A stretch of DNA of 62,861 nucleotides, counting the filler. It is 7 parts of 7 records of this genome, joined end to end, with 100 filler letters (N's around TTAATTAATTAA, not from the genome) between each part and the next. Parts side by side here need not be neighbours in the genome. Positions count along the whole stretch, not along the records: positions 1 to 8,258 come from SRR2962707_3845; 6 more parts are not named here. One strand, 5' to 3'. The notes beneath the pieces were generated by a model. It was not told the DNA's origin and ran no database searches. It worked only from the letters and a program-made list of their open reading frames with translations. How positions within the stretch are numbered: position 1 is the stretch's first letter; the number at the start of each line of letters is the position of its first letter. Made by a program: the position numbers and the translations under genes. Shown one piece after another: positions 1 to 54,738 of this stretch.

Positions 1-28
1 CGTGCGTGCGTGCGTGCGTGCGTGCGTG
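1..28. repeat. (CGTG)n microsatellite at window start
   Basis: Seven tandem CGTG units read directly. Confidence 0.95.
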
Positions 29-462
29 TTGTGTGAACCAATCATCGCCGCGCGGTTCATGGCTGGCTGGCACCCGCAGCATCGCCAGAGTCCACAGACT
101 GCTTGAGAGCGAGTGAGCGAGCGAGGCCCACGGCCCAAGTGGGAAACAGCGTGTGCAGCTCGCAAAGCAGCCTGCTTGTCGTTGTGTGTTTTGTTCTCGT
201 TTTATTGTTGTGCATATTTTGAATTGCAATTGCCGTCGCTCGCTCACGTCACCAGCGAGTACATACTGTTCGTGTCGGTGCGTCTCGGGCTGCTGCTGAC
301 TGTTCCGCACTCAATCGTTGTGTGTGTTGAGGCCCTCAGGCTTCTGTTCCTCTCACCCACGTGTTTTCTGTGAGTGTGTGCAGTGAAGTTGCAATGGAAG
401 TTGTGGAGAGGGTGTTTTTGTGAGCAGCGGCGTCGGTCAGCAAACAGAAGCGCGGCAATATA

Positions 463-3400
463 ATGCCCAACTTCAGCACCACTTTGTCTGCGTGTCAACC
501 TTGTGACTGTCCTGTGGAAAAGGACGACTACTTCGTGAGACTCACAACGAGTTGCGCTGTTGCCTCATTCCTCGGCGTATTCGGTTCTCTGTACACTATA
601 ATGTCGATTGTTGGGACCATATTCCGTCTGCAGGCGAAACTGCGCCACCGCCTGTGGAATTACCTTTTGAACGGTGGCTTTCTGATAGCCCTTCTGGCGG
701 TTGGCGAAGGCATCTTGGGCGCGACGGTTTTCAAGAGCACGATGAATTCCGCTCTGTATGGGCCTTTTTGGGGAGGACTCCAGAACTTGACCGCCGAGTG
801 CCAACTCACCGGCCGTCTGCAGCAGTTTGCAGCTTGGCTTGAGTACGTCTTGCAATGCACCTTCAATTACCCTATGAAATACAAATAAACACATTGCCAC
901 TTTCCGATCTTGCTGACGCAAGTGCTTTTCGCCGTCATGAGCTGAAGTACTTGTGTAGAGTATGGCGTTTAATTCATTGCACCCTGACTTGTGTGTGCAC
1001 ATGTTCATACGTGCGGTCTATGATGTATGCATCCTCTGCCAGGTTCATGAGCATTTTATTTCTTGGGGCGAGCTTTTACGACATCCTCAAGAACAAGCGA
1101 AATATTTCGCCACGGCTGTGTGCCATTTTTTTGTCTGTTGCTATTTTGTCGTCGTCGCTCATGACGATCCTGCCCGGCTTCACTGACAGTTATGGGGCGC
1201 TTTACCTTTGGTGCTGGATTGATGACCCAGACTTTCAATGGGGGTGCGTTACCTTCACGGTTTTGGCTGTGGGCGTCGAATTGTGCGATTCCGACTTGCG
1301 ATTAAAATGTATGAAATATATGTCATGTATGTCATATATGTGTGTCTGTGTGCGTGCATGTGCGGGCCCACCGTCTAGTTTTTACTACGCAGAAATGATG
1401 GCAGCGACTGTTGCATTGCTCGTCGTCACTCTTTTACCGCTAAATCAGTGGTCAAAGCTCCGCCAAAATAGCGACACAAAGCAGCTTGCGATTCGAATGA
1501 TGCTCTTTCCTATTGTGTGGCTTGCCTTTCGCCTTCCTGCCATCATCAATCGCGGGTTTGTTCATGCTTTTTCTGTGAGCTAGCTCGTCGAGAATTAAAT
1601 TTGTGACTGCCACTGTGTGTCATCACAGCTCCCCCTTTTGGATATTTTCTGCAGCTACTCGCTTTTTTCTGGCGGAGGAAGTTTACCGGGACTCTCTTTT
1701 GCACAAGCGGTCACTTTTCCCGCAATGGGGTTTGCAGACGCAATTGTATATGCTGCCAGTAGTGCAAAAATGCAAGAGTTTTTTACCAGTATTAAGTTTC
1801 GAATCGCAACTAGCCAGAAGCTTCGAGCTTCATTCCATGAGCGCCAGCGACGCGCAACAAAAAGGGCAGGTGGTGTTAGCACCCCTGGCGCACCTCACTG
1901 CAATGCTGGCAGTGACACTACCGACCACAGAATAAACGGCCGCAGTGCACGATCAATTAGGAAGCTGCTACAGTCCAATTCAGAATCTCTAGAGCTCAGG
2001 GGTCACGGGAAAGAGCTGCAGCGCCTTTCACGCGCTTATGCACGGCCGTTGCCACAGCGTGATAACCAGGGGACAACGAATGGCAGCAGCAGCGTGAGGA
2101 ATTCCCTTCTCCACGGGGATGTAGACGATATTCTCGCGCAACTAGTTTTGGACAGCCGCCAAGTCCAATTGAAGGAGTTGGTAGGAAACGGGCGCCTCAG
2201 TACGTTAGAATGCGTTTGTCCTACTTTCTCGCCTGGTTTCAATTGTACGCTTGTTCTCAACTCGCTGCAATATATTGCTTCAGGTCAGGTATTTCGAGGG
2301 ACCTATCGTGGCAAGACTGTTGCATTGCGGGAACGCGTGGTGTCAGAGGCAACAACATCGGCCGTGAATGCTACTTTTCAGTGAGTTCAAATATATTGGC
2401 TTGTGTGCTTGTGTGATGAGCTTTCAGCGCGCCTTTTTTTTTTTTTATTCTTTTTTGTCCTGCGCCAATGACCGCTTTCACTGCTCATGGAACAATTCTC
2501 AGGAAACTGGTTGACGAAGCATGGACATTGTTGTTTTTGCGGCATCCATACGTGGTTGGCTTCCACGGAATTTGGGACCTCCCTTGTGATTTCTTCACTC
2601 GCACTTTTCTTGTAGTTGAGTTTTGTGATTTTCAGGTTGGTTTGGGCACTCGCACGAACTTGAGTGGACGGGTCTCAGTCATGCATGTTTACAGTTGACA
2701 GTCCGTTTGTTTGCTTTCAGTTGTCACAGCGAGTGCAGGCTTTCAGATCACAGTGCTCACTCCCAGAAGATGAGTCACGTGAAGTTGCAACAAACTCTCG
2801 CAGAAGGCACATCCGCGCGGCCACATTTGTTCGTTGACGCTATGCGATGTCCGAGAACGTTGCATTCGGTGAGCTCCCTTGATTTACTTTCGATTGTTGA
2901 AATTTGTTTTGTACAGTCGCTCAATGAAGCTCCCCACCAAAATCGTTCAGTTTCGCAAAGTATGGAGCTTCCTCTGACGACATGGAAAAAGGACCAATCC
3001 CCTATCAGAGATGGCAACCCAGGGCTATTTGTTCCAAATCATCTCAAATTAAAATGGCTTCGTCAAATTGCAGAAGCTTTCAAGTTCGTTGTTTTCTTAT
3101 AATACAGATGTCTGGTTCCTATTCGACCAGAATGCACGCATGCAGATGCTGATTTTCTGCGCTGTTCACTGTCCTATTTCAGGTATCTGCACTCGAGATC
3201 GCCGCCGGTCGTCCATGCTTCCCTGAAACCAAGCAAAGTTCTGCTTTCTGCCAACGACGATGTTCGAATTTCCGACTTTTCAAGGTCCTTTCATGGAACC
3301 ACATCACATTTGCGCGTAGAAGGAAACGAATTGGAAGCTCTGCAGTGGGACGCCCGATTTACACCTCCTGGTATTCGTTGGGTTTTTGTTTTGCGCAGTA

Positions 3401-4243
3401 CTCTGTGCTGCAAACGAAGCGCGGGTATTGTCAGTGTTATTCGTATATTCGTATGCCCAGTGCTATTCTTGCAATCACTGGGATCGTAAAATTGTATTGT
3501 AGACATTCTGCGCAAAGTACGCCAATGCCTTCGAAGTAGCGGTGACGGCGTGCGTGAACAGCGTTCGCAAACTGCTGGCGGGATTAATAGTCCTGGTATT
3601 TTGCAGGTGCCGACGCGCACGAGCACCTTGGAAGTTTCACTGGAAGAAGGGATGGCATGGGACATGTATGGGTTCGTCACGCGCCCGTCATTGGCTTGTC
3701 GATGGCTCAAACACCAGTCAGCCGCGTTGCGTTTCCGTTGTGTATTTTCGGTAGTCGCGGTCGGTTGTTTGACGGTATGATTCCTCGAACGGCGGCCTGC
3801 TTGTTTCAGGTTTGGAGTTACAGCACTCTTTGTGTTGAATGAGCAACTTCCATTCAATCAGCTCACTCCGAATGCCAAAATCCAGCCTCCGCTCATCGAT
3901 GGTGCTGCTATGAGCACATCCTCGACACGAATTGGCCCATACTCGTTTCTCGCAGACAGGCTCGTTGAGGAGCAGTTTCGACCAGCGATCCCCGTGAACG
4001 TCTGTGGTGAACTCGTAAGTGTCATGATTGGTTGCAACGATCATCAAATTTTTGCTGTGGTTCCTTTGGTTTGGTGGTGTGATTCTGCTGTGTGATGTGT
4101 CTCAGCATATGTTGCTAGAGCGCGTGTTCACACCAACGCATGGGACGCGCACAGAGCTTACTTTCGGTGAAGTCGAGGCCACGCTACACCAAATTCCATC
4201 AGTGCTGAAAACTTTGACTGGCGTGACGATTGTAAAGAGTTAG
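463..4243 (+). CDS. Multi-exon GPCR (cAMP-receptor/Git3/GCR1-like 7TM) fused to a C-terminal TKL-like pseudokinase domain
   Basis: Manually spliced at GT-AG sites. Seven hydrophobic segments with extracellular C (AECQL), WCWI, TM6 MMLFPIVWLAFRLP and TM7 GFADAIVY. Kinase subdomains follow: GNGRLSQV, VALRE, LRHPYVV, YLHSRSPPVVHASLKPSKVLL, ISDFS, DMYGFGV..LPF, FRPAIP. Stop TAG ends at 4243. Confidence 0.85.
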
Positions 4244-4314
4244 CTTGATCATTTCGTGCCTGATGACTAACATGCCAAATCTGTTCCAAGTTCTGCAGAC
4301 CGGTGCAACGGGCG

Positions 4315-7300
4315 CTATTCGCGAACGAACAAAAACACCGTCTCCATGTACTGCGAGTAGCAAGCCTCACCGTCGTAACCGCACTGGGATGGTCCACCAA
4401 TATCAATTTGGTAGTCAGTGTTTGACGTGTCGTCCTGCCAGTACAATCCATCCTCCAGCGCCTGTTTGATTTCAGCACACGCAATCGTGAAAACAGGATG
4501 TTGCCAGCTTTTAGGGCAAACAACACCCCACACTTTCACAAACTGTGTTCTTACCCCAAGACCCATGTCAGCTTCCGTGCACTGGTCGTCGAAGCCGCTG
4601 ACAACACCCTACAATCATGCCACAAAGTTTCACATGGGACCGAGATAAAAAAACAAGGCAACTTTTCTCACTTCTACAATACTCAACCTTGACTGACGAA
4701 CCGAAGTGTCCCCACTGCTGTCCGTATATGCCACCGTGATGTACTCAATGCCGTCAGACTGGCCGTAGGTGTCGGATGACGTCAGCCAGTTGGGAATCTG
4801 ATATGCGAGTCCGATGCCAAAATCCATTTCAGGCAGATGTTAGTAGCGATTCAGGCAGCGATCCCCATACAAATAGCGCTAAACACACTCCGCAAATCGT
4901 AAATGAGTAGAAATGCCATGATACATACGTAACCCGAGCTGCAAGTTGCCGGAATACGTTCGTAATAGCTGCAGCTGCCGCCGTAGCCTGGGAAATCGCC
5001 GCTGCCCAATGCAGACGTGAAATAGTTGGAGAGAGTGTCGCCGAGGTAATCTCCTTTTGACGTCAAACAATAATTCGTGTGGCTCATACTGTCACGAATC
5101 ATGAGCTGCGCTGCAGGAATTGAACTCCACGCGAGTCCTTTCGCATCGGCGCCGATCAACACTAGACTTGATGTGTCCCCGTATACTTCAGCAGACATCC
5201 AATCGTCAGCGTTTCGCACCCAATGCGGTCGGTCGGCATTCGTCATCTTAGCAGCGAGAGTCCAGCCACCGCCGTCTGTTGTCATGTCGCAAAAAGCTTG
5301 GTACGTTTCGCCAGTGGTCGTGTTTACAAGTGTGTACGTACCGTCAATACCGGCGTATGTTGTTTGCTTGTCAAGGATTTCTTTGCACGAGGACCCAATA
5401 GGCATGCGCAAAGGATCCGCTTCCCGCACATAGAAGTAGACTGTTTGCGGGTATGATGTTGCGCAAGTTGTGTCAGAATAAGAACAGTACCTAAACACGA
5501 CACAGAGACCAAGATGCACTGTCACTTTTGTTGCACAGCTTTGTGCCTGATCTTCACGCTTAGACATGCCCAGCAACAATCAACATTCTAGCGATTCCCT
5601 TCACGTACGTCGGCCCGCCAATATCTTGCTGATAAGTCGGGTTGGAGCTGTCCTCCAGCCAAAGTGCCCCGTCTTCCAATGCACCCAAACCAACATCAGC
5701 TTCCCCGCAAGCGTCATTAAGTCCACTGAGCACCGCTGACGTGTCGCCATCCGCGTCGGTGTAGGCTATCGTGATGTATGACAGAGGATCTTGCGCGTAG
5801 GTAGTGCTCGAAGTGAGGACCAACCAATCTGGCTCGTATGTAGCAATGACGGGGCATCGTTCGTAGAATCCACACGCCCCACGCAAAGCGTTAGTCGCTT
5901 CGTCGTAACCAGGAAAGCCTTGGCCGAGAGCTGCCTCAAAGTAGTCGGCCATATTGGTATTTTGAAAGCAGCGTGAAGAATTGGTTGTCATCACAAAGTC
6001 ATCTGGGCTCTCATCATCCTTGAGCATGATTTGCGATGCTGGGATACTGTTCCACGCTTCACCCTTGGCGTCGTTACCAGAGGCAAGTGTTGCAGTGTCG
6101 CCGTATGCACGCGTGGATGACCAGCTTTTGGCGTTGTTAACCCAATGTTTACCGTCCTGGTTCGACATCTTGGCAGCAAGCGTCCAGCCACCCCCACCCG
6201 TGGACATGTCACAGTATGCGCCGTAGCTGCGAGTGTCACTGAGAGGGCGGTCATTCAAAAGATCGTACTTGAGAACAATTATGTCCCCATTCTCAAATTG
6301 TCCGGCAGCTGCTGTGCCATCGTCGCGGCGACCGTGCCCATCGCCCACGCGTCCCCCGTTGCTGCTGTCCCACAAAACTACCTTGCCTGTCCACAACAGT
6401 TCTCCACGGCGCCAATGCTGCACGGTTGCGGTCAGTTCCGAAAATACGGGTGTGTCTATGCAGCGAGCGACCTCGTGGTTCCAAAAATGGAAATACATTC
6501 CGTTGTAACTGGCACCGAAAGCATGCTCGTCGTCACGAACGACAACTTCACAGAACCCCGTACTGGTGAGAACATACTGACCGTCTTGCCCGTGGGTATC
6601 CGGGTACTTCTCCACGATGTCCAAACACGAGCTCCCACGAATCAAGTCGTCAGTCTCCTCTCGCACGAAGAAGAACACGGTCTCCGGGTAGTCCTCTTGG
6701 CACGTATCGTCGTCATAGTTGCACTGAGTTGGGCCTCCAATGTCTTGCTGGTATCCCTTGTTGCTCGCGCCAGGCAGCCACACAGTGCCGTCTTCGAGAG
6801 CGCCGATGGCGATGTCCGCTTCTGGGCAATAGTTTGCTGACTCGAGGCCACTAATGACACCGGCGGTGTCAGCGTTCACGTCTGAGAAGGCCATCGTCAA
6901 GTACGTGATGTCACCCGAGCCGATTTGGGTTTGACTGTACGCGTCAGCACTTGACAAAAACGCGGGGTTGTAAGTTCCCGTCGCAGAGCATCGTTCGTAG
7001 TACTGGCACGTATCGGTATTGGCAAGATCGTAGCCAGGAAAGCCCAGAAGAGCGCGCTTCCAATACTCACTCATCGTTGAGTGGCGATTGTCTCCAACGG
7101 TAGCACCAGATGCCAACGTTGTGGTGATGGACTCGGTGAGAAAACACCCAGAGTTGGCCTCGGTCATCAAGTAGTCGTAACCATTTTCGCTATCGCGAAT
7201 CATGAACTGGGCGGTCGGAACGTTGGACCAAGCCAATCCACGAGCATCGCTGCCTTCGCCAAGGTCAGAAGTATCTCCAAACGCGGTGGTGTTCGTCCAT

Positions 7301-8049
7301 GCTGCCGTCCCTGTCACCCAGTGCTTCTCGTCGGCGTTTGTCATCTTTGCGGCCAGCGTCCAGCCGCCGCCATCGGTGGTCATGTCGCAGTAGGCTTCGT
7401 ATTCTTCGGTGCCATCGGCGGTGACCAGAGTGTACGTCCCGTCACTGCCTGCGAGAGACGGGTGGTTGGTCAACAGCTGCAGACAGGAAGGGTACACACC
7501 CGGCGTCGTCGTCGTTGTGGTGGACGTGGTGGTCGTGGTGGTCGTGGTGGTCGTCGTCTTGGGAGGCAAAGTCGGCGTTCCGTCGCACTCGGACAGCAGC
7601 ACCTGGGTCAACGTGCAGTCTCCAATGAGAATGTCGTCCGTGGAGTTGACCCGGATCTTGTCGAACCGAGTGGTGTTGGTCATGTGCGCTTGTCCGTCGC
7701 CTACGCGGCGATACACGACGTCACCGTGTGCACCAAGCACGACCTGCGCGTTCGCACTCTTGATGCGTATGCCGGACCCGGCAGAAGCTGGTGGGTCTTG
7801 CAGCAGCCCGCCGCTCGAACCCGCTAGCTTGCGGCGTTGCTCGGGCTTCAGCACTGAGTGCAGCTGCTCCATCTGTCGATTCTGCGCAATCGCCAAGTCC
7901 CGAAGCAGCGCCAGTTCCTGAAACAACTTGTCCATGTCCTCACTTGCTGCTGCTGCTGCGGCTGCTGCGGCTGCCGTGACCGTAGTAGGCTTCCCTGAAA
8001 GAAACGCCGTGGCAACGCCCGCAACGGCGAGCGTGGTCAGGGGCTTCAT
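4315..8049 (-). CDS. Secreted protein with coiled coil, Thr-rich stalk and three intelectin/fibrinogen-related (GGGWTL) domains
   Basis: ATG at 8049 (MKPLTTLAVAGVATAFL signal-like). Three copies of SC..DG.Y.L..YCDM.T.GGGWTLAAKM..W....FGD..D.KG.AW, each ending TV(F/Y).(F/Y)VRE. Introns 5491-5608, 4798-4928, 4609-4701 and 4462-4554 restore the repeat register. Confidence 0.85.
7504..7557 (-). repeat. Coding ACG/ACC repeat (poly-Thr mucin-like stalk)
   Basis: Translates to TTTTTTTTTTSTTTTTT in the 865-aa ORF. Confidence 0.9.
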
Positions 8050-8234
8050 CGCCGGCAATGTTGTTGTAGCTCGCGCTTGTTCTCGGGGGGAGGGGAGAAA
8101 ACGGGGGACAGAGCAAGGACGAAAAATATTCTGGCACTCAAACACACCCACCCACACACTCCCCCCCTCCCCTCACACACAGAGTATTGAGAGTTGCAAG
8201 AGCGACGGGAGGGAGCGGGAGAGAGTATCGAACG

Positions 8235-41288: not shown

Positions 41289-41388
41289 NNNNNNNNNNNN
41301 NNNNNNNNNNNNNNNNNNNNNNNNNNNNNNNNTTAATTAATTAANNNNNNNNNNNNNNNNNNNNNNNNNNNNNNNNNNNNNNNNNNNN
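41289..41388. other. Artificial contig spacer (eukaryote/bacterium junction)
   Basis: N44-TTAATTAATTAA-N44. Confidence 0.99.
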
Positions 41389-42377
41389 TGGCTGAAGGTG
41401 CGCCCGATGCCAGCCATGGCACTGCCGATCATATGGGAGTTCGCATCTTCACGGACCATGCGCACAAAGGTGTTGGGCACGTCCTTGCTCAGGCGCTTCA
41501 GGCCCTTCACATCCTGCTGATGATAGATGTTACTGACCAGATACAGGCTGCTCTGGGATTCGTGTTTGACGATGTCCGACAGTGCAATCACACCCCGCAC
41601 CTTGTCACCCTCCATTACCGGCAGGTGGTGCACGTTGTTGTGCAGCATGGTCAGCATGGCCTCGAAAATGAAGGCGTCGGAACGGGTGGTGATCAGCTCT
41701 TCCGTCATGATGTCGCTGATGGGTGTTTCCGACGGCAGTGCCTCGCAGAGGGCGCGGGTGCGCAGGTCACGGTCGGTAATGATGCCTGAAAGCCGGGGCT
41801 GTTTGCCGCTCTCGTCCATCAGCAAGAGGGCCGACACTCCCCGGTCCGTCATGATTCGGGCGGCCTCCTGAAGGCGCACGGTGTTGGGCGCCATCACGGG
41901 CTCGCGGGAAATCAGCCGGGTCACCCGTGCTGTCATCGGTTGATTCGATTTCTCCCGCCGTGAAAGTGCCGACCGAAGACGTGAATGGTCTTCAATTTCG
42001 ACAAAATCGGTGAAATTTTCGTCGTTTTCCCACAAATATTGAAATATTTCGTCGGGAATCAGGTAGATCAGGGAGTCTTCAATAGCCTTGGCCGGAAACC
42101 GCACGGTTTTGTTCATCAGCAGACCAAACTGACCGAAAATCTCACCTTCGGTAATGCGGTTGTATAGCTCGCCAGAGCGGCGATAAATCTCGACGGCGCC
42201 GCTGCGCACATAGTGCAGGTAGGTGTTTCGTTCGCCCAGCGTGAGAATGTCTGTGCCAGCGCGGAAATAGGCGACTTCGATGCTGGAGACGATACGATCC
42301 AGGACATTCTCCGGCATTTCATCAAACGGGGCGTGCTGGGCCAGGTGGTTGCGTATCTCGATCAGCTCTGCCTGCAT
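41389..42377 (-). CDS. cNMP-binding + CBS-pair + DUF294 nucleotidyltransferase-like protein, 3'-truncated
   Basis: HAPF..YVRSGAVEI..GEIFG (cNMP), GIITDRDLR and HHLPV (CBS pair), then the start of the DUF294 region. Confidence 0.9.
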
Positions 42378-42499
42378 TGTTCGCTTCCTTTTCGCACCGG
42401 TTACGCCTCTGGAATTTATCACGCAATATAGCAGTGGCGCTGTTTTACGGCCATGATGTTGGGCAAGATAGCGTTGGTTTACACACGAGAGGTTGGGTT

Positions 42500-43024
42500 T
42501 TGTCTGCTATTCATACACTGGTCCTTGGGGGCATTCGATCCGGCAAAACCGCGCTGGCGGAGCGTATTGCCTGTGAGGCCGGTTCACCGGTGGTTTATGT
42601 TGCAACGGCGACCGCCGACGATGAAGAAATGACCCAGCGGGTGGCCCGCCACCGGCAGAATCGGCCGCCGGAATGGGGGTTGGCAGAAGAGCCCTTGAAG
42701 CTGGCCTCCCTGCTGGATGGTTACGCCAGGGAACCACAACCACCCTTGTTGCTGGTGGATTGCATGAGCCTGTGGGTGAGCAACCTGCTGTTTGCCGGCG
42801 ATGAAGTGTTTGCCCGTGAGCGTACCGCCTTCCTGCAGGCACTGGAGAACTATCCGGGCCCAATCGTGATTGTCAGTAATGAAGTGGGCCTGGGTACCAT
42901 CGGCATGGACCCGCTCACCCGCCGTTTCTGCGATGAACTGGGGTGGCTCAACCAGGATCTTGCCGCCCGTTGTGAGCGGGTGCTGATGAGCGTGGCGGGG
43001 CTGTCGCAAACGTTGAAAGGCTGA
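42500..43024 (+). CDS. cobU: Adenosylcobinamide kinase / adenosylcobinamide-phosphate guanylyltransferase
   Basis: GGIRSGKT P-loop, YVATA..DEEM..RV..H...RP, VSNEVGLG, R.F.DELG.LNQ. TTG start after GAGAGG. Confidence 0.95.
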   Translation: MSAIHTLVLGGIRSGKTALAERIACEAGSPVVYVATATADDEEMTQRVARHRQNRPPEWGLAEEPLKLASLLDGYAREPQPPLLLVDCMSLWVSNLLFAGDEVFARERTAFLQALENYPGPIVIVSNEVGLGTIGMDPLTRRFCDELGWLNQDLAARCERVLMSVAGLSQTLKG

Positions 43025-43639
43025 TTATGCACCGTGCGTTTGCAGGCAACTGAGCAGGCCATGCTCCGAGATGTCCACGCGGATACGGCTGCGGCAGGCG
43101 TAGGGTACCGTTAACGCTGAAAAAGAGCGTTCAGTGGGGATACCCATCACCTCCGCCAGGAGCATGCGAATCACGCCGCCATGGCATACCACGAGTACCC
43201 GCTTGCCTGCCGCTTGGGTTTGCCAATCCTGCCAGGCGCTGCTGACCCTTTGCCGGAACTCGGTGATAGCCTCACCACCGGGCGGAGGATAACGAACCGG
43301 GTCGCTCCAGAAGCGGGTCAGCGCCTCGGGCGTATCGGCCATGATGTTCTCGGAGGTTCTGCCCTCCCAATCACCGAACGCAATCTCCCGCAGCCGTGGC
43401 TCCTGGTGCAACGGAATCTGACGTTGCTCCGCCAACTGTTCCGCGAAGAGGCGGCAGCGCAGCAGTGGGGAGGTGATGATCACATCCCACTGGTCATCGT
43501 CCCTGATAGCCGCGTTCATCTGCTGCCAGCCGGTGTCGCTCAGTGGATCATCCTTGCTGCCCCGGAACATGGGCCCGCCGGCAGGTTCACCATGACGGAT
43601 CAGGTCGAAAAACGCAGTGGTGTTCTGGTTATTGGTCAT
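43025..43639 (-). CDS. cobC: Histidine phosphatase family protein (alpha-ribazole phosphatase)
   Basis: RHG, SPL.RC, LRE..FGDWEG, HGGVIR motifs. Directly downstream of cobT. Confidence 0.85.
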   Translation of the reverse strand: MTNNQNTTAFFDLIRHGEPAGGPMFRGSKDDPLSDTGWQQMNAAIRDDDQWDVIITSPLLRCRLFAEQLAEQRQIPLHQEPRLREIAFGDWEGRTSENIMADTPEALTRFWSDPVRYPPPGGEAITEFRQRVSSAWQDWQTQAAGKRVLVVCHGGVIRMLLAEVMGIPTERSFSALTVPYACRSRIRVDISEHGLLSCLQTHGA

Positions 43640-43646
43640 CCCCGCT

Positions 43647-44705
43647 TCAGCCCTCGTCCTTGTCGGTCACGCCGGCGTCAGCGAAGCTGGCCATCTGGTT
43701 GTGCAGGGCACAGGCACTGCGAAGCAGCGGAACCGCCACCGCAGCGCCGCTGCCTTCACCCAGGCGCATACCCAGATCCAGCAACGGCCTGGCATTCATG
43801 GCGTCGAGCACCGCCTGGTGCCCCGGTTCCGCCGAACGATGGGCGAACACAAGCCAGTGCCGCAGTTGTGGTTGTTGGCGAACAGCTACTAAGGCGGCAA
43901 CGGAAACAATGAATCCGTCCACCAGTACGGGAATGCCGCGCGCCGCACTACCCAGAATGGCGCCTGCCAGCGCAGCAATCTCGAACCCGCCGAGGGAGGC
44001 CAGCACCGCCAGGGGATCGCGGTTGTTGCCATGCCTGGCCAACGCCTGGGCGATGACCTCACACTTTCGAGACACGCCGGCTGCGTCCAGCCCCGTGCCC
44101 GGCCCAGCCAGGTTTTCCGGGCTTTGTTCCAGCAACGCGCAGGCAACGGCGGTGGCACTGGTGGTATTGCCGATGCCCATATCGCCGCCCACAAACAGTC
44201 GGCACCCGTCATCCGCGGCGCGGGCGGCGGCCCTGTCACCACTGGCCAGCGCCTGTTCAAGCTGGCCCGGCGTCATCGCGTCGGTTGTGGCCAGATTGGC
44301 GGTGCCCGCTGCGATCTGCTCATCACGTACATCGGTCAACGGCGGAACGTCGCCGACGGTTCCGAGATTTACCACTTCCAGCGAGGCTCCCAGTTCCCGA
44401 GCCAACACGCTGATAGCCGCACCCCCGCTGGCAAAGTTCGCAATCATCTGGGCGGTGACTTCCTGGGGGTACGCGGATACGCCCTCCGCACAGACGCCGT
44501 GATCCGCCGCGAAAACAGCGATGCGGACAGGGTCGACCTGCGGATGTTGCGTGCGCTGAAGGCCCGCCAGTGTAATCGCTACGTCTTCCAGCTGCCCCAG
44601 AGACCCCCGGGGCTTGGTGAGCACGTGCTGGCGTTGCCGTGCCCGCTCAGAAAAATGGGTGTCGGAGGGTGGCAACGGTTGTGTCCAGCAGGAAGGCAGC
44701 GGCAT
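43647..44705 (-). CDS. cobT: Nicotinate-nucleotide--dimethylbenzimidazole phosphoribosyltransferase
   Basis: [44 protein letters not shown]. Confidence 0.97.
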
Positions 44706-44845
44706 GGTTGGATCCTGAGGTGGCAAAGTGTCGGGAGCCGAAGATGGTCTACCCGGCCTGAAAAAGTGTCAAGGATAGCAGCCACTCGGTTAGACTTCCT
44801 TTCGATCACGACAACCCACCGCCCGCTCGAAGAGACATTGCTGAT

Positions 44846-45799
44846 TTGAACGCCTTCATTCTCGCCGTGACAGCTTGTTGTATCGCCGTCGTATTGGACC
44901 GCTGGCTGGGTGAGCCGCGACGGTGGCACCCGCTCGTTGGCTTTGGGCATGTCGCCGCCTTCCTCGAACAGAGAATGAATCGTCTACCTGAGCGAATGGC
45001 GGGATCGATGGTTCTCGGGTTCCTGGCCCTGTTCATCGCTGTGATACCCGTACTGGCGGCAGCCGAGTGGTTGCGCTGGTGGTTGGGGAACTGGGAATAC
45101 CTGCTGGTTCAGGCTGTGGTGCTGTATTTCGCCCTGTCCATTCGTGGCCTGACGGAGCACGGCCGGGCAGTGTCTGACGCGTTGCATGGGGGCGACCTTG
45201 AGAATGCCCGGGCACAGGTCGGTCGTATCGTCAGTCGTGATGCAGCGGCGCTTGATGACAGTGGCGTAGCAACAGCCGCGACCGAGTCCATGTTGGAAAA
45301 CGGCGCCGATGCCGTGTTCGCCAGCCTGTTCTGGTTTCTCGTAGCCGGCGTTCCGGGCGTATTGCTTCACCGGCTGGTGAACACCCTGGACGCCATGTGG
45401 GGGTATCGAACTGATCGCTACCAGTATTTTGGCCGCGCTGCGGCGAGGCTGGACGACGTATTGAACTGGGTACCCGCTCGCCTCACGGCGCTGACCTACA
45501 GCCTGCTTGGCGATGTTCGTGGCGGCTTTCGTTGCTGGCGGGCACAGGCGCCGGCCTGGGACAGCCCGAACGCCGGCCGGGTCATGGCGGCAGGGGCCGG
45601 GGCTTTGAGAGTTGTACTCGGTGGCCCTGCGCCCTACGCCTTAGGCATCAAGCAACGGCCCATGCTCGGTGAAGGTGAACCGGCATCGGCCGAGACCATT
45701 GATGCGGCGATCCAACTTGTACATCGCGGCGTGTGGTTGTGGCTCGGGCTGTTGGCCGCGGTCGCCATTATCGGATGGATAACCAGCGCCGCGCCTTGA
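44846..45799 (+). CDS. cbiB: Adenosylcobinamide-phosphate synthase CbiB/CobD
   Basis: GEP..WHP, IVSRD, ESMLEN..D, VNTLDAMWGY, ARLDD.LN..PARLT, SPNAG. Membrane protein. Confidence 0.95.
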   Translation: MNAFILAVTACCIAVVLDRWLGEPRRWHPLVGFGHVAAFLEQRMNRLPERMAGSMVLGFLALFIAVIPVLAAAEWLRWWLGNWEYLLVQAVVLYFALSIRGLTEHGRAVSDALHGGDLENARAQVGRIVSRDAAALDDSGVATAATESMLENGADAVFASLFWFLVAGVPGVLLHRLVNTLDAMWGYRTDRYQYFGRAAARLDDVLNWVPARLTALTYSLLGDVRGGFRCWRAQAPAWDSPNAGRVMAAGAGALRVVLGGPAPYALGIKQRPMLGEGEPASAETIDAAIQLVHRGVWLWLGLLAAVAIIGWITSAAP

Positions 45800-45804
45800 A
45801 GGTG

Positions 45805-47118
45805 TCAGCCTGCCGCTTCAGATTCCCGTGTTTCGCTGGCCGGTATGGTCAACATTAGCAGGAAGCCAATCACCAGGAACACCAGAATGGTGCTCATGCC
45901 CCAGCGCTGGCTGTCAGTAACGGCCGTGACCCATCCCACCAACAGCGGGCCAGCAAACGCGGTGGCTTTGCCAGAGAACGCGAACAGGCCGAACATCTGT
46001 GTTTGCAGGTGCGGCGGCGCAATGCGGGCCAGGTGAGAGCGGCTGGCGGACTGCAATGGCCCCACGAAGATGCCCAGGATCATGCCCCATACCCAGAACG
46101 CGGTGGCGCCGTCCACTACCAGAATGGCGAGGGCACTGCAGCCCAATCCCACCAGTGACAGCAGGATGGTGTTGCGCCCGCCGAGGGCGTCATCCACCCA
46201 GGCGAAGCCCAGTGCGCCCAGGCCGGCGGTGACGTTCAGGGCGATGGCGAATTGCAGTACTTCCGTAGAGCCCATATTGAACGTACCCGCCGCGTACACC
46301 CCGCCGAAGGTAAAGATAGTGGCCAGGCCATCGGTGTAGAGCATGCGGGCGATCAGGAAGCGCACGATGTCCTTGTACTGGCGAACCTGGGCGATGGACT
46401 CCTTCAGTTGCCGGAACCCGGCGCGGGTGGCGGCGGCAATTCCCAGGCCGGTGGATGGGCGGTCGGGAACAAAGATAAAGGCCGGCAGGGCAAATACCAG
46501 ATACCACACCGCTACCAGCACAAACGTGGCACGCACGTGCTCGGCGCTGTCCCGATTGAGGTCGAACAGGTTGGCATCGGCTTCGATAAAGCCATACAGC
46601 GCCACGATAAGGCTCAGCACGCCGCCGGTGTAACCCAGCCCCCAGGCCCAGCCTGACCAGCGCCCGGTTCGCGCCGGGCTTGCGAGATCCGGCAGCATGG
46701 AGTTGTAGAAAATGAACGCAAACTCGGCGCCGAGTGTACCCAGGCCGACCCACAGTGCTGCGTTCCAGAACTGATTCTGCTCCGGCGTGACCGTCCACAA
46801 CATGGCGCAGGAGACCACGCAAAGCAGGGTGAAGCTGATAAACCAGGGTTTACGACGGCCGGACTGGTCTGCAATGGCCCCCAATATCGGTGCCAGGATT
46901 GCGATGAATACACCGGCAATGCCAACGATGTTGCCCCAGGCTTCCGTGCCTTTTACCTCGTCCTGCACCACTGACACGCTGAAGTACTGAGCGAAGACAA
47001 AGGTCAGAATGATGGTGAAAAAGGCGCTGTTGGCCCAGTCGTAGAGCGCCCAGGACCAGAGCGCGCGTTTGTCTTCCGGCTTGCCCTGTGTGGGGGCGAC
47101 AGGCGATTGCGATGACAT
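45805..47118 (-). CDS. MFS transporter (UMF1/Atg22-like family)
   Basis: WALYDWANSAF, P.LGAIAD..GRRK, FYNSMLP, SG..WGLGY.GG, QSASRS. About 12 TM segments. Confidence 0.9.
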   Translation of the reverse strand: MSSQSPVAPTQGKPEDKRALWSWALYDWANSAFFTIILTFVFAQYFSVSVVQDEVKGTEAWGNIVGIAGVFIAILAPILGAIADQSGRRKPWFISFTLLCVVSCAMLWTVTPEQNQFWNAALWVGLGTLGAEFAFIFYNSMLPDLASPARTGRWSGWAWGLGYTGGVLSLIVALYGFIEADANLFDLNRDSAEHVRATFVLVAVWYLVFALPAFIFVPDRPSTGLGIAAATRAGFRQLKESIAQVRQYKDIVRFLIARMLYTDGLATIFTFGGVYAAGTFNMGSTEVLQFAIALNVTAGLGALGFAWVDDALGGRNTILLSLVGLGCSALAILVVDGATAFWVWGMILGIFVGPLQSASRSHLARIAPPHLQTQMFGLFAFSGKATAFAGPLLVGWVTAVTDSQRWGMSTILVFLVIGFLLMLTIPASETRESEAAG

Positions 47119-47202
47119 GTGGGGCTGGGCTCCTGATCCTTGCAAGGTAAATCCGTGCGGTGATTGTCGCCATTATCGCCACAAATGCACAGCCCCGTGG
47201 GG

Positions 47203-47724
47203 TTAAACCCTCTTCAGGTTCCGCGATTCGTGGTCCAGCAACCACGCCTTGCGCTCCAGGCCGCCCGCGTAGCCCGTCAACGTACCATTGGCTCCGATCA
47301 CCCGGTGGCAGGGGATCAGAATGGCAATGGGGTTGAGTGCATTGGCACGAGCCACGGCACGCACCGCCTTCGGGTTGCCCAGGGTGTTTGCCAGCGCGCT
47401 GTACGAGCGGTGCTCACCCGCTGGAATCCCGGTCAGCCCCTGCCAGACCTGTTGTTGAAACTCAGTGCCGGTCAAGCGGATGTCCTTCCACGGCAGGGGC
47501 TTGATCACCCCTGAGAAGTAGGCGTCCAGCCACTCGATAATGGTCCCGGGGGCGCTGTTCGGTTGCTCGCGCCACTCCGGCTGCCGGAACCGGCGGTTTT
47601 GCAGCGAGTGCATGCGCTCTTCGTTGTCGTCGAAGTCCAGGTGCACCAGTTGGTCATCCACCGTGGCCAGCCTCAGGGGGCCAACGGGACTGGGGAAGCG
47701 GCTGACATGAATTTGAGTTGTCAT
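47203..47724 (-). CDS. ogt: Methylated-DNA--protein-cysteine methyltransferase
   Basis: GT.FQ..VW..L..IP.G...SY, RAVA.A...NP..ILIPCHRV active site. ATGA overlap with the upstream gene. Confidence 0.96.
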   Translation of the reverse strand: MTTQIHVSRFPSPVGPLRLATVDDQLVHLDFDDNEERMHSLQNRRFRQPEWREQPNSAPGTIIEWLDAYFSGVIKPLPWKDIRLTGTEFQQQVWQGLTGIPAGEHRSYSALANTLGNPKAVRAVARANALNPIAILIPCHRVIGANGTLTGYAGGLERKAWLLDHESRNLKRV

Positions 47725-49235
47725 GATGGTGTCTCCTGCCGGGGTGGATGGGTGTTCAGTGATGTCCACAGGTACTGCGCTGCGTAAGCCCGCCATGGCC
47801 GCCAGCGTTCGGCGTGGCGCGTCAGGGCTTTGGCGTCTTGCGGGCCGCCCAGATGGGCCGAAGCCTTGAGTATGCCCAGATCGCTGGCGGGAAACGCGTC
47901 TGGATCCCCCAGGCCGCGCAGGGCCAGGTAGTGGAGTGTCCAGGGGCCGATGCCCCGCATGGGGGCCAACTGCGCCAGCAGGGTGTTGCCTTCCTGCTCG
48001 GCAAAACCGGGTTCGGCAAACCGGGCGGTGATTCGTGCCAGGGTGTCTGCACGGCTGCCGGGCATACCCAGTTTGTTCAACGGCTGGCCGACGAGTGCTG
48101 CCGGTTCCGGGAATCTATGGGTAATACCCGTGCCCCCGGCAAGATCGTCGGGAAGGGCCTGGCCATAACGAACCACCAGCCGCCCAGCCAGGGTTCGCGC
48201 CGCGGAGAGGGACACCTGCTGCCCCAGAATGGCCCGAACCGCAAACTCGAACCGTTCCCAGCTGCCCGGAACGCGCAGTCCGGGATGCCGTGCGACCAGT
48301 GGTTCCAATAGCGGGTCCTGCGCCAGGTGTTCGCTGATGCCGGGCAGGTCCGCATCCAGATCAAGCAAACGGCGTATCCGCGCACTCACCTCCAGAATGG
48401 ACTGCCGTGCCGGCCCACGAAGGATAACCTGCACCCCCGGGGGATTGTCGCTTGGGCGGCAGATGACCAGCCCCGGTTGCCCAGCAATGCAGAGCGATCG
48501 CGCGTAGTGGTGCGCGCCAACCGCTTCCAGGCCCGGAATGGCCCGTGCCCGAAAGAAGGTCAGTAACTGCTCACTGTCGAACGGTGGCCGGGCCCGCAGG
48601 AACAGAACCAGGTCGTCGTGTGCCGGCAGAAAAAGATCGTCTGCACCGTTCTGTGTGGCTTTGAGCGGTGGCTTGAGACCTCTGCGGAATGCCGTCGGTG
48701 CATTGCCGTAGGCTTCTTTCAGGGTGTGATTGAAGCGGCGCAGGCTGCTGAAACCGGCAATCTCCGCGATCTCGGTCATGCTGAGGTTGCTGTCGACAAT
48801 CAACTGCCGGGCCCGCAGTAAACGCCGGGCCTGGGCGTGCTGTTGTGGGGTGGCTCCGGTGTGGCGTTTGTAGAGCTGTCGCAGGTAGCGGTCGGTAATG
48901 CCCAGCCGTTCGGCCAGGTCCGCCACGGAGCCGTTATCCAGAGCACCTTCGTCCACCAGCCGCACTGCCCGGGCCACGGTGGTGTGAACCCCGGCAGCAG
49001 CCGGGCTACCAGGTGCCGCTTCTGGCCGGCACCGCAGACAGGGTCGAAAGCCGTTGGCCATGGCCGTTTCTGCAGACGGGTAAAAACGCACGTTCCCCCG
49101 CTTGGGCGTCACCGCCGGGCAAATGGGGCGGCAGAAAATCCCGGTGGTCAACACAGCGGTGTAGAAACGACCGTCGAATCGGGCGTCACGGGTTTTCAGT
49201 GCCTGGTAGCAAAGGTCATCGTTTAATGTGTCCAT
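47721..49235 (-). CDS. alkA: AdaA-AlkA fusion: Ada Zn domain + AraC HTH + AlkA N-terminal + HhH-GPD 3-methyladenine glycosylase
   Basis: TTGIFCRPIC..GFRPCLRCRP, GFSSLRRFN, RAILGQQVS, GIGPWT, DAFPASDLG, WRPWRAYA. Confidence 0.93.
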   Translation of the reverse strand: MDTLNDDLCYQALKTRDARFDGRFYTAVLTTGIFCRPICPAVTPKRGNVRFYPSAETAMANGFRPCLRCRPEAAPGSPAAAGVHTTVARAVRLVDEGALDNGSVADLAERLGITDRYLRQLYKRHTGATPQQHAQARRLLRARQLIVDSNLSMTEIAEIAGFSSLRRFNHTLKEAYGNAPTAFRRGLKPPLKATQNGADDLFLPAHDDLVLFLRARPPFDSEQLLTFFRARAIPGLEAVGAHHYARSLCIAGQPGLVICRPSDNPPGVQVILRGPARQSILEVSARIRRLLDLDADLPGISEHLAQDPLLEPLVARHPGLRVPGSWERFEFAVRAILGQQVSLSAARTLAGRLVVRYGQALPDDLAGGTGITHRFPEPAALVGQPLNKLGMPGSRADTLARITARFAEPGFAEQEGNTLLAQLAPMRGIGPWTLHYLALRGLGDPDAFPASDLGILKASAHLGGPQDAKALTRHAERWRPWRAYAAQYLWTSLNTHPPRQETPS

Positions 49236-49298
49236 GATGGAAAGTGTACCAGCGAAATCCGGAAAAACTCGCCGGATTCGGAACTGACCGTTGAACCT

Positions 49299-50069
49299 TT
49301 ACATCGCAAGCCCAAGCAGTAGGACCAGTTCCGCAAACACCACGCTGGCCCCGAGGGTATCGCCGGTATAGCCACCCAGTTGCCGGCGTAGATACCCGCC
49401 CCAGACAATGGCCGTACCCAGCGTAGCGATAACGAGCCACAGCAGTGCCCTGGTCTCAAACGGGATGAGGGCCAGAGAGACAATCGCGGTGAACACGGTG
49501 GCAATCGCCAGTCGTGAACGCGAGAAATCTTCGGCCACCGGCTTGCTCTTGCTCTTGTCCGGGTCGGTCACATACGGCAGGAAGCCCATGATCATCAGTG
49601 GCGCGAGACGCGACACCATCGGGGCCAGGATCAGCGCCAGCCACACCGGTTGAGCTTCAGCCAGCAGCGCAAGTTTCAGCACCAACGCGACCACCAGCGC
49701 CACCGTACCGTAGGTGCCGATGCGGCTGTCCTTCATGATCCGCAACCTGGCTTCCAGGGTATACCCGCCGCCCAACGCGTCGACACTGTCGGCCAATCCA
49801 TCCTCGTGGAACGCGCCGGTAATCCACAGGTGAAAACCCAGAATAAGAATTAGACTGACCAGCGGGCTCCAAAGCTGCACCACAGCCATGTACAGCCCCG
49901 CATAAATGACGCCGAGCACCAGCCCAACCAGAGGGAAATAGACACTGCACTGATTCATCAGGCGGGGGGAATAGTCGATACGCACCAGCATGGGAATGCG
50001 TGTCAGGAAACCGATGGCCAGCCAGAAGGCTTGCCATTCCCTGGAAACGAGAGGTTTCAGTTGGCTCAA
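49299..50069 (-). CDS. cobS: Adenosylcobinamide-GDP ribazoletransferase (cobalamin synthase)
   Basis: FLTRIP, TGAFHEDGLAD..D..GGG, IMKDSRIGTYG, GGYTGD.LGA. Confidence 0.96.
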   Translation of the reverse strand: MSQLKPLVSREWQAFWLAIGFLTRIPMLVRIDYSPRLMNQCSVYFPLVGLVLGVIYAGLYMAVVQLWSPLVSLILILGFHLWITGAFHEDGLADSVDALGGGYTLEARLRIMKDSRIGTYGTVALVVALVLKLALLAEAQPVWLALILAPMVSRLAPLMIMGFLPYVTDPDKSKSKPVAEDFSRSRLAIATVFTAIVSLALIPFETRALLWLVIATLGTAIVWGGYLRRQLGGYTGDTLGASVVFAELVLLLGLAM

Positions 50070-50212
50070 TGTGCTGTCCTGCCTTTGGAGATGGTGTGAG
50101 TCTGCGGCCAGTTTAGCATTATCGTTGCGTGAGCCTGTTCCACACCGGAAATTCGGCGTTGCCCGTGGCCCCTGATCGGCGAACAGGCTTGGTCTAAAAC
50201 CGACCTCGCAGC

Positions 50213-50479
50213 CTGGAGTTATACGAACCGGTTCGCAAAACTCCAGACAAGGGGCGGCAAATCGTTATAAGTATCTGATACTGTTGAAGCTGGTTTAGAG
50301 CATTGTGGAGTTATACGCCCTTATTCGTGGGTGCGTTAGAGACCAAGGAGGGCGTATAACTCCGGCGGTAGCCGTGGTGTTTCCTGTTTAGATGTTGATT
50401 CTAAAGAAATTTATTGGATTGGAAGGAGCGGCTGGAATTGGAGTTATACGAATGGGTGATATACGAACGGGTTCGTATA
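50213..50479. repeat. Cluster of GGAGTTATACG-based inverted repeats upstream of the attI-like site
   Basis: 34-bp imperfect palindrome 50213-50246, perfect 15-bp IR 50307-50321/50349-50363, single copy 50440-50452, and TATACGAAC-GG-GTTCGTATA at 50460-50479. Confidence 0.9.
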
Positions 50480-52616: not shown

Positions 52617-52743
52617 CTTGTGTGCCCCGAATACGTATTGCAGGTTTCAACTATCGATTGCTGCGTTGCAATGGAACCCCGGTCGTCTGGCCCACGTTGG
52701 TCACATAAGACAATTGAAAGCCCTTGGATGGTGAGTTTGCAAA

Positions 52744-54494: not shown

Positions 54495-54568
54495 CCATGT
54501 GAATTGGTCCGGTCCGCGATTTGGGCGGGGCTGTGAGGCTGAGAAATGAAACTGCAATTATCCGTAAT

Positions 54569-54651
54569 ATATTAATAGGCTTCGTTATTAATATGTAATT
54601 AGCCACGTGAGGCCATAAAAGTTGACAGGAGATTGAAATCCGGCCGACAAT
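54569..54651 (+). promoter_or_regulatory. AT-rich operator-like inverted repeat and sigma70-like promoter
   Basis: ATATTAATA-N8-TATTAATAT at 54569-54594, then TTGACA(54622)-N18-GACAAT. Confidence 0.5.
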
Positions 54652-54738
54652 TGGGCGTCGGGGTGTATCAGGCTGAGGGTGCAATCTTTCGTGTCTGGCT
54701 AAATCGCCGCAATTTTAACGTTTGCGCGGGTAAAATTC

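Follow-up and report, generated by a model that had tools for sequence, protein, structure and literature searches.

An expressed cAR-like receptor gene with a C-terminal TKL-like kinase fold predicted to be catalytically dead

Described receptor-kinase fusions and the present locus

GPCR-TKL bigrams, in which a G protein-coupled receptor (GPCR) is fused to a kinase of the tyrosine kinase-like (TKL) group, are on record from oomycetes, with 17 in Phytophthora infestans, and from amoebozoans (PMC5784254, PMC6033456), and the seven-transmembrane (7TM) kinases 7TMK1 and 7TMK2 are known from Dictyostelium (PMC1420674). GPCR-type transmembrane kinases have been reported from oomycetes, ciliates, amoebae and a few metazoans (PMC10463195), and a recent study describes GPCR-TKL/K proteins of acanthoecid choanoflagellates and GPCR-TK proteins of sponges, none of them functionally characterised, and concludes that such fusions arose repeatedly (PMC12716839, eLife 2025). 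Here, we analyse a marine protist gene of related architecture at positions 463-4243 (plus strand) of a 62,861-nucleotide stretch of DNA (hereafter, the window), which consists of seven joined parts of one genome and represents eukaryotic DNA with short GT..AG introns. Its product combines a receptor related to the cyclic AMP receptors (cARs) of Dictyostelium with a TKL-like kinase fold that, judged by its sequence, has lost its catalytic residues.

The oomycete GPCR-TKL bigrams and 7TMK1/7TMK2 resemble the window gene in that they join an N-terminal seven-helix receptor to a C-terminal TKL-type domain that is predicted to be cytoplasmic and is functionally uncharacterised. However, the cited papers treat the domain as catalytic, whereas that of the window protein would be dead by a sequence rule, and the DEP domain found in 8 of the 17 P. 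infestans proteins is absent from the window protein. No close annotated oomycete or amoebozoan fusion emerged, because none of the 110 relatives of the window 7TM half exceeds 499 residues; these systems are compared by description. The acanthoecid GPCR-TKL/K proteins, which belong to marine protists, and the sponge GPCR-TK proteins have the same order of 7TM domain and C-terminal kinase as the window gene. Their 7TM domains cluster with no other GPCR family (PMC12716839), whereas that of the window protein is related to Dicty_CAR receptors; the main text of PMC12716839 is silent on the catalytic-site status of its fusions. Fusions of a GPCR to a phosphatidylinositol phosphate kinase (GPCR-PIPK; Dictyostelium RpkA, oomycete GKs, Naegleria), which are widespread among protists, likewise couple a cAR-related 7TM domain to a C-terminal signalling domain, but their accessory domain is a lipid kinase and that of the window protein a protein-kinase fold, with no PIPK match in Pfam scans of the window exon and open reading frame (ORF) pieces. 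The statement in the original prediction that GPCR-PIPK and GPCR-TKL fusions have been described agrees with the text of PMC6033456, PMC12716839 and PMC5784254, and none of these fusions has been characterised.

Inactive kinases have been considered in this context before. The P. infestans kinome contains 19 TKLs predicted to be inactive, most of them with transmembrane domains, for which an analogy to HER2/HER3 has been drawn (PMC3019232), and reviews ask whether the accessory domain of bigrams is active at all (PMC6033456, PMC12716839). We found no conserved dead-kinase GPCR fusion in the literature: the word pseudokinase is absent from the text of PMC6033456, PMC12716839, PMC5784254 and PMC10463195, although the supplementary tables of PMC1420674, PMC3019232 and PMC12716839 may list a 7TM kinase flagged as inactive. 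The window gene is an uncommon variant of known, uncharacterised protist receptor-kinase fusions, with the conserved dead-kinase form as its apparently new feature.

On the receptor side, Dictyostelium cAR1-4 and cAR-like receptors share with the window receptor, and with the receptor half of its ortholog described below, 7TM homology, a pair of cysteines in transmembrane helix (TM) 3 and extracellular loop (ECL) 2, an ECL2 with a W-C-W motif and a tail that continues into the cytoplasm beyond helix 8. Unlike the window protein, cARs end in a Ser-rich tail without a kinase fold. On the kinase side, the TKL-group pseudokinases KSR1/2 (whose VAIK Lys is Arg in mammals), ILK, IRAK2/3 and MLKL and the receptor pseudokinase HER3 work as scaffolds or allosteric partners; they are kinase folds that are under selection although their catalytic residues are lost. 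KSR shares the Lys-to-Arg change in strand beta3 with the window protein, and HER3 and plant receptor-like pseudokinases resemble it as membrane-tethered dead kinases. To our knowledge, none of KSR1/2, ILK, IRAK2/3, MLKL and HER3 is fused to a seven-helix receptor. The solved sequences nearest to the kinase of the window protein and its ortholog are the active kinases RIPK3/4, CTR1, WNK1 and TAK1.

A single expressed gene with a seven-helix receptor half

The evidence for a single transcript comes from the contigs of one public run (X1, one study), aligned to positions 1-4800. This run was labelled 'RNA?' by guess and is taken as RNA because its contigs are spliced. The contigs skip 11 intervals on the plus strand, all of which are introns with GT..AG borders, and the 12 joined exons amount to 2508 nt, a length divisible by 3, with 835 codons between an ATG at 463 and a lone stop at 4241-4243. 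One contig (record 1, 2241 nt) covers 218-3370 and extends from the 5' untranslated region (UTR) to the catalytic-loop exon (exons 1-9); the 505 nucleotides left over by its listed alignments agree exactly with the summed length of exons 5-8 (97+133+108+167), indicating that the receptor exons are joined to the catalytic-loop exon. Independently of the contigs, TM7, helix 8, the linker and the kinase glycine loop are all encoded in exon 4, one unbroken stretch of genomic sequence, which makes receptor and kinase a single gene. The locus is one expressed 12-exon gene encoding an 835-residue membrane protein, as claimed in the original prediction, and the splice-junction check proposed there for a transcript from 463 to 4243 returns the 835-codon frame. 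The boundaries given below are those of the X1 contig joints.

218-462, plus strand: 5' UTR, up to the start of the RNA contig (record 1 begins at 218)
463-842, plus strand: exon 1, a brief Cys-rich extracellular N-terminus with an NFS site, TM1, TM2, ECL1 (NLT site, Cys113) and start of TM3; from joint 842>1043, translation, hydropathy and 60% identity to P0001
1043-1243, plus strand: exon 2, end of TM3, intracellular loop (ICL) 2, TM4 and ECL2 with the LWCWI motif
1379-1555, plus strand: exon 3, TM5, ICL3 and TM6; from joints 1243>1379 and 1555>1655 (with cut shifts) and hydropathy
1655-2199, plus strand: exon 4, TM7, helix 8 (AKMQEFFTSIKF), a low-conservation linker of ~120 residues and kinase subdomain I with GNGRLS at 2184-2199 (finished at 2284-2285)
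2284-2380, plus strand: exon 5, beta2-beta3 with VALR at 2319-2330, in which Arg450 replaces the VAIK lysine; VALRER is identical in L001 and L003
2503-2635, plus strand: exon 6, helix C (LVDEA, Glu472 at 2516-2518), beta4-beta5 and hinge (LVVEFCD)
2721-2828, plus strand: exon 7, start of an insert of ~80 residues between hinge/helix D and helix E; joints 2635>2721 and 2828>2917
2917-3083, plus strand: exon 8, remainder of the ~80-residue insert and helix E (LKLKWLRQIAEAFK)
3183-3370, plus strand: exon 9, HASLKPSK at 3214-3237, DFS at 3274-3282, activation segment and start of TPPD at 3361-3370; from profile matches and alignment to RIPK4/RIPK3
3371-3502, plus strand: intron 9, also kept unspliced in a 191-nt contig (3341-3531)
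3503-3671, plus strand: exon 10, completion of the APE-like motif (Asp666), an insert of ~45 residues and start of helix F (AWDMYG); joints 3370>3503 and 3671>3810
3810-4014, plus strand: exon 11, C-lobe helices F to H (FGVTALFVLNEQLPF ... FRPAIP)
4106-4243, plus strand: exon 12, divergent subdomain XI and stop at 4241-4243; joint 4014>4106

Across positions 1-4800, the contigs and the genome differ in no letter, so the odd codons are neither sequencing errors nor, in X1, edited; an HRD-encoding variant at 3214-3222 was looked for and is absent from the X1 contigs. The catalytic-loop exon had been noted as missing from the ORF track, and in this track (ATG, GTG and TTG starts) the corresponding frame indeed opens only at 3310, leaving 3184-3309 outside every listed ORF. 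An alternative intron 3 with a GTGAGC donor at 1575 and an acceptor at 1628 is ruled out by the RNA joint 1555>1655; intron 3 spans 1556-1654 according to the RNA, and this junction agrees with the intron-less sequence of the ortholog. Intron 9 shows retention, with a depth of 19.7 in record 2 versus 25.5 at the spliced joint. The retained form would meet an in-intron stop and lose the kinase C-lobe from helix F onward, and the 191-nt contig could represent an isoform, pre-mRNA or DNA carry-over. The 5' UTR contains an upstream ORF of 9 codons (394-423) in the frame of the main ORF, with its TGA (421-423) preceding the ATG at 463. A (CGTG)n microsatellite occupies positions 1-28 of the window and a T-run positions 2427-2461 within intron 5; the read alignment passed over both as repeats. 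No paralog of the gene was found within the window.

Residues 1-290 are a predicted seven-helix receptor with an outside N-terminus that belongs to the Dicty_CAR-related GPCR lineage, an assignment based on homology and on the modelled fold of the ortholog and not on a direct Pfam match. Consistent with the seven helices anticipated in the original prediction, a 19-residue Kyte-Doolittle scan places seven distinct hydrophobic stretches within residues 25-284, and nothing downstream of residue 300 rises above the threshold (maximum 0.98). Each of TM1, TM3, TM5 and TM7 is followed by basic residues, and both the N-terminus and ECL1 carry N-x-S/T sites (the ECL1 site also occurs in the ortholog), which places the N-terminus outside and the C-terminal half in the cytoplasm. 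Neither the window exon and ORF pieces nor P0001, a 370-residue metagenome protein that is retrieved by exon 1 (E 1.6e-27) and corresponds to the receptor half of the ortholog, match a Pfam 7TM family, with no PF05462 (Dicty_CAR) match even at E<=10. The family assignment therefore comes from relatives. A phmmer search of 1.84 billion representatives with P0001 gave 110 matches at E<=1e-3, none longer than 499 residues, and the Pfam scan took 61 of the 109 non-self matches, hand-picked and mostly longer proteins, leaving out 48. Of these 61 relatives, 44 show Dicty_CAR at E<=0.01, and 42 of the 44 reach the gathering score. The 17 without it comprise 11 with no family, including P0005, the window read-through ORF, and 6 with only GPR_Gpa2_C, 7tm_1 or 7tm_2. 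P0002, which is 58% identical to P0001, passes PF05462 with 24.9 bits (cutoff 21), and the P0001 matches P0014, P0016 and P0017 (E 2.3e-12, 1.8e-10 and 5.2e-10) reach Dicty_CAR scores of 54.9, 37.4 and 59.6 bits. The proposal of a CAR/Git3-type receptor thus stands for its cAR-like part by homology, but lacks a direct Pfam match, and its Git3 part is not supported, since Git3 (PF11710) appears in 9 of the 61 scanned relatives (E 4.4e-5 to 0.0051), in each case under the 24.2-bit cutoff, and gives no match to the window pieces or P0001.

The pattern of conserved residues points in the same direction. In an alignment of 61 sequences (A1), conservation of C77, W147, C148 and W149 of P0001 is 90% or higher, and their window counterparts lie in AEC (Cys113) and LWCWI. 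Cysteines in TM3/ECL2 and a W-C-W motif are typical of cARs. An AlphaFold2 model of P0001 based on the A1 alignment (mean predicted local distance difference test score, pLDDT, 82.6; predicted template modelling score, pTM, 0.76) shows seven helices, an ECL2 hairpin and helix 8, and a Foldseek comparison with the PDB gave at least 500 matches at E<=0.001; among the matches listed, 50 of 50 are GPCRs, with TM-scores of 0.26-0.72.

The kinase half and its relatives

Downstream of helix 8 and a poorly conserved linker, which together make up residues 291-420, residues 421-835 are predicted to form a complete protein-kinase fold of TKL-like type that includes two inserts specific to the lineage. 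From the glycine loop (GNGRLSQV), beta3 (VALR), helix C (LVDEA) and the hinge (LVVEFCD), the joined protein continues through an insert of ~80 residues, helix E with the catalytic loop (KWLRQIAEAFKYLHSRSPPVVHASLKPSKVLL), ISDFS and TPPD (3361-3370 and 3503-3504) to an insert of ~45 residues, helix F (AWDMYGFG) and a tail that has diverged. Hence, the glycine loop, beta3, helix C Glu, hinge, catalytic loop, DFG, APE and helix F Asp elements are present in the canonical succession, whereas subdomain XI is degenerate. The altered motifs reported in the original prediction (VALR, HASLKPSK at 3214-3237, DFS at 3274-3282 and TPPD) are all read in the joined translation.

The kinase assignment is clearest for exon 9, which matches Pkinase with 20.9 bits (cutoff 31.7) and PK_Tyr_Ser-Thr with 15.5 bits (cutoff 23.1), both below threshold, and yields 28 phmmer matches in the PDB at E<=0.01, comprising 25 kinases and 3 Cas proteins. 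RIPK3/4, FLS2, BRI1, SOBIR1, CTR1 or MLT/ZAK account for 20 of the 28, the 5 remaining kinases being others; the RIPK, plant receptor-like kinase (RLK), CTR1 and MLT/ZAK matches represent what we take to be the TKL group, in line with the proposed TKL-like nature of the domain. The alignment of exon 9 to the catalytic loops of RIPK4 and RIPK3 pairs HAS with HRD, the second Lys with the Asn and DFS with DFG. Exon 6 retrieves only Polo-like kinases from the PDB, at the matching position and without significance (E ~1.3), and exon 11 alone has no PDB match. As the exons other than exon 9 give no significant match, the presence of a full fold in the window protein rests on collinearity with the ortholog.

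Compared with active kinases, Lys72 is replaced by Arg450, Asp166 by Ser616, Asn171 by Lys621 and the DFG Gly by Ser636, whereas the helix C Glu (Glu472), the DFG Asp (Asp634, equivalent to Asp184) and the HRDxK-type Lys (Lys618) are kept. The claimed loss of key catalytic residues is thus borne out for Lys72, Asp166 and Asn171, none of which has an equivalent. A published rule demands that Lys72 (VAIK), Asp166 (HRD) and Asp184 (DFG) all be present for activity (PMC1420674, PMC3019232). The window protein fails this rule, with two of the three (Lys72 and Asp166) missing and Asp184 retained, and its kinase half would accordingly be classed as a pseudokinase.

Relatives of the gene are encoded on three seawater-metagenome contigs, two of which (L001 and L002) have the same sequence and one of which (L003) is different. 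The L001 protein (768 residues) has the same architecture as the window protein, and its gene contains three introns, predicted from coordinates and splice consensus alone, that share place and phase with window introns 4, 5 and 10 (intron 10 after WDxY(G/A)). Ortholog identity is 45%/32%, and window residues 434-783 are collinear with L001 (E 3e-45). The ortholog carries VALRER, HGALRARK and DFS, corresponding to Arg, Ala, Asp and Lys at the Lys72, Asp166, Asp184 and Asn171 sites. VALRER occurs in all three relatives that cover this region (window, L001/L002 and L003), and the window and L001 have in common the beta3 Arg, the loss of the catalytic Asp, the Lys at the Asn site and DFS. Of the two motifs whose conservation in orthologs the original prediction proposed to check, DFS is kept in L001, whereas HAS is replaced by HGA. 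The glycine loops read GNGRLS in the window and GHSVTG in L001.

The second ORF of L001 (P0111) scores above both cutoffs, with 65.7 bits for PK_Tyr_Ser-Thr and 43.7 bits for Pkinase, and finds its best PDB matches in WNK1, CTR1, TAK1, RIPK4 and Roco4. WNK1 lies outside the TKL group. In the ESM Atlas, P0111 falls into generic kinase clusters only, and an AlphaFold2 model of its kinase half (4-row alignment) was unusable (mean pLDDT 40.9, pTM 0.23). Of 3352 candidates of similar length, a search with P0111 recovered one at E<=1e-5, P0111 itself, and 315 shorter candidates yielded no match; exon 1, compared with longer proteins, retrieved only P0001. The same fusion is present on L001/L002 and, in part, on L003, P0003 and P0004; the remaining 1.2 kb of L003 contain no recognisable catalytic loop.

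A comparison of the window gene with L001 allows the constraint on the individual regions to be assessed. Synonymous sites are saturated (proportion of synonymous differences, pS, 0.70-0.96), and hence only the proportion of nonsynonymous differences (pN) was compared across regions.

7TM region: identity 158/290 (residues 1-290; 54%), pN 0.28 (residues 25-290)
Linker: identity 34/130 (residues 291-420), pN 0.43 (residues 300-420)
N-lobe: identity 51/91 (56%), pN 0.33
Insert 1: identity 18/79, pN 0.60
Helix E to activation segment: identity 40/76 (53%), pN 0.29
Insert 2: identity 6/46
Helix F onward: identity 31/123 (residues 713-835), pN 0.45 (residues 713-790)

By this measure, the dead active-site region is constrained as strongly as the receptor core. 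Since the dead motifs are shared by relatives and the kinase core matches the 7TM core in pN, the kinase half is best described as a maintained pseudokinase and not as a product of decay. This agrees with the earlier argument, made from intact reading frames, against a pseudogene: the gene is expressed, its frame is intact and its altered motifs are common to orthologs.

Possible modes of action, genomic surroundings and significance

That the gene encodes a GPCR fused to a maintained pseudokinase is, in our view, highly probable. We hold with moderate confidence the combined statement that it is an expressed, conserved cAR-like GPCR with a TKL-like fold that acts without phosphotransfer, as a docking or allosteric module; a scaffold or allosteric mode taken on its own is a serious possibility that we put forward tentatively. 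In such a mechanism, a ligand would act on the 7TM bundle, and the cytoplasmic pseudokinase, held on a flexible tether of ~120 residues, would not phosphorylate but serve as a docking or allosteric module. The likeliest modes would be association with an active, free-standing TKL kinase, as in KSR-RAF or HER3-HER2, or binding to the loops or tail of the receptor itself. The preserved Arg-Glu pair, together with the DFG Asp and a basic residue where the Asn would stand, makes cation-independent nucleotide binding plausible. It is tempting to speculate, unlikely as this may be in all its parts, that a small uncultured marine protist clade possesses a cAR-type GPCR whose sole built-in effector is a nucleotide-binding dead kinase fold, with the ligand controlling its exposure or dimerisation and thereby the allosteric activation of a free TKL kinase.

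Instead of serving as a docking or allosteric module, the kinase fold could be a functionless or merely structural tail on an ordinary cAR-like GPCR that signals via heterotrimeric G proteins. An 'inactive catalytic domain' model has been offered for GPCR-bigrams by van den Hoogen and Govers (PMC6033456, Fig 2E legend), and it would suit a protein whose 7TM half models as a well-formed GPCR fold, whose catalytic residues are gone and whose C-lobe tail is weakly conserved (31/123). We nevertheless regard this explanation as unlikely, because a tail of this kind is at odds with the low pN of the N-lobe (0.33) and the catalytic and activation segment (0.29), compared with 0.28 for the 7TM region and 0.60 for the inserts, with the preservation of VALRER, LVDEA, KYLH..VVH and DDVR.SDFS.SFH between orthologs despite saturated synonymous sites, and with a 415-residue frame that is still open and correctly spliced across 9 exons. 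Far less credible, and in our estimate highly improbable, is an artefact in which two adjacent genes were mistaken for a fusion or a decaying pseudogene for a functional gene. The transcript is backed by the assembly contigs of one run only, and one intron is also retained, but exon 4 runs unbroken from TM7 through the linker into kinase subdomain I, exons 1-9 are covered by a single contig, the 11 introns are precisely removed to give the 835-codon frame, and the same fusion recurs on two independent metagenome contigs (L001/L002) and partly on L003, P0003 and P0004.

As a further alternative, the domain could be an active kinase whose site is non-canonical, in the style of WNK, CASK or haspin, and could phosphorylate the receptor tail or a downstream target. 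Sequence-based calls of inactivity can err, as PMC1420674 and PMC3019232 warn. In addition, WNK1 is the top PDB match of the C-lobe of the ortholog, the DFG Asp, the helix C Glu and Lys618 are retained in the window protein, and some relatives have intact GxGxxG loops. However, Lys72, Asp166 and Asn171 are lost together, and a Lys-to-Arg change at the VAIK site is a standard kinase-dead alteration. The glycine loop (GNGRLSQVFRG) contains only Arg and no Lys at what we take to be the WNK-type position, and the Asp166 site holds Ser in one ortholog and Ala in the other, so that no conserved substitute base is visible. An active kinase of this type thus appears quite improbable, more so than a functionless tail.

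Several observations nevertheless weigh against a maintained pseudokinase that acts as a docking or allosteric module. The Arg-Pro of subdomain XI is kept in L001 (KRPSMSEI) and absent in the window protein, and the window kinase exons other than exon 9 have no significant Pfam or PDB match when searched singly. The residue at the Asp166 site varies between the window (Ser) and L001 (Ala), which fits a lost function, yet no replacement chemistry is evident. Canonical GxGxxG loops are found in P0003 and P0004, both known up to the first kinase exon, and active members of the family may exist. The long, poorly conserved linker argues against a rigid allosteric coupling between the predicted 7TM bundle and pseudokinase. 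At the level of the transcript, the contigs of one run prove no single molecule and exclude no internal start, and intron 9 is also retained.

The receptor gene is followed by a convergent neighbour on the minus strand (4300-8170), with at least two Fibrinogen_C-like ORFs (4851-5576 and 5560-8169) and introns at ~4461-4553 and ~4608-4700. The 3' UTRs of the two genes overlap or abut, because an RNA contig (record 3, 3909 nt) crosses both 3' ends. In L001, the ortholog is followed by a 283-residue ORF (3326-4177, minus strand) with the look of a GxSxG-type hydrolase (IGASLGG); as this is not the fibrinogen-like neighbour, synteny between the window and L001 is lost. Elsewhere in the window, positions 42000-50300 and 52700-56400 contain long intron-less ORFs with bacterial-type Pfam architectures and a guanine-plus-cytosine (GC) content of 0.59-0.63, compared with ~0.50 elsewhere; these stretches represent an island gained by horizontal transfer or, alternatively, a chimera of the assembly. 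Their Pfam matches include the following.

45805-47169, minus strand: ATG22/MFS
47721-49295, minus strand: Ada_Zn_binding, HTH_AraC, AlkA_N and HhH-GPD
49299-50261, minus strand: CobS
52735-53697, plus strand: DAGK_cat
54703-56400, plus strand: PG_binding_1

At the edge of the first high-GC stretch lies an ORF (41337-42503, minus strand) with a cNMP_binding and two CBS domains; that a cyclic-nucleotide sensor ORF shares the window with a cAR-like receptor is probably a coincidence.

The architecture of the window protein as such is already known, inactive transmembrane TKLs have been noted in the P. infestans kinome, and the organism is probably not tractable. If the speculative reading held, in which ligand binding leads to allosteric activation of a free TKL kinase by the built-in pseudokinase, it would provide a G-protein-independent path from a seven-helix receptor to a kinase cascade within one polypeptide and represent the first GPCR-pseudokinase. 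The window gene offers a natural test case for scaffold and allosteric models of bigram signalling and extends the membrane-tethered pseudokinases, so far found on single-pass receptors (HER3, plant receptor-like pseudokinases), to a seven-helix receptor. As the fold, the helix C Glu, the DFG Asp and the neighbouring blocks are constrained like the receptor although the catalytic residues have been lost, the kinase fold has, at least in this lineage, probably been kept for something besides phosphotransfer.

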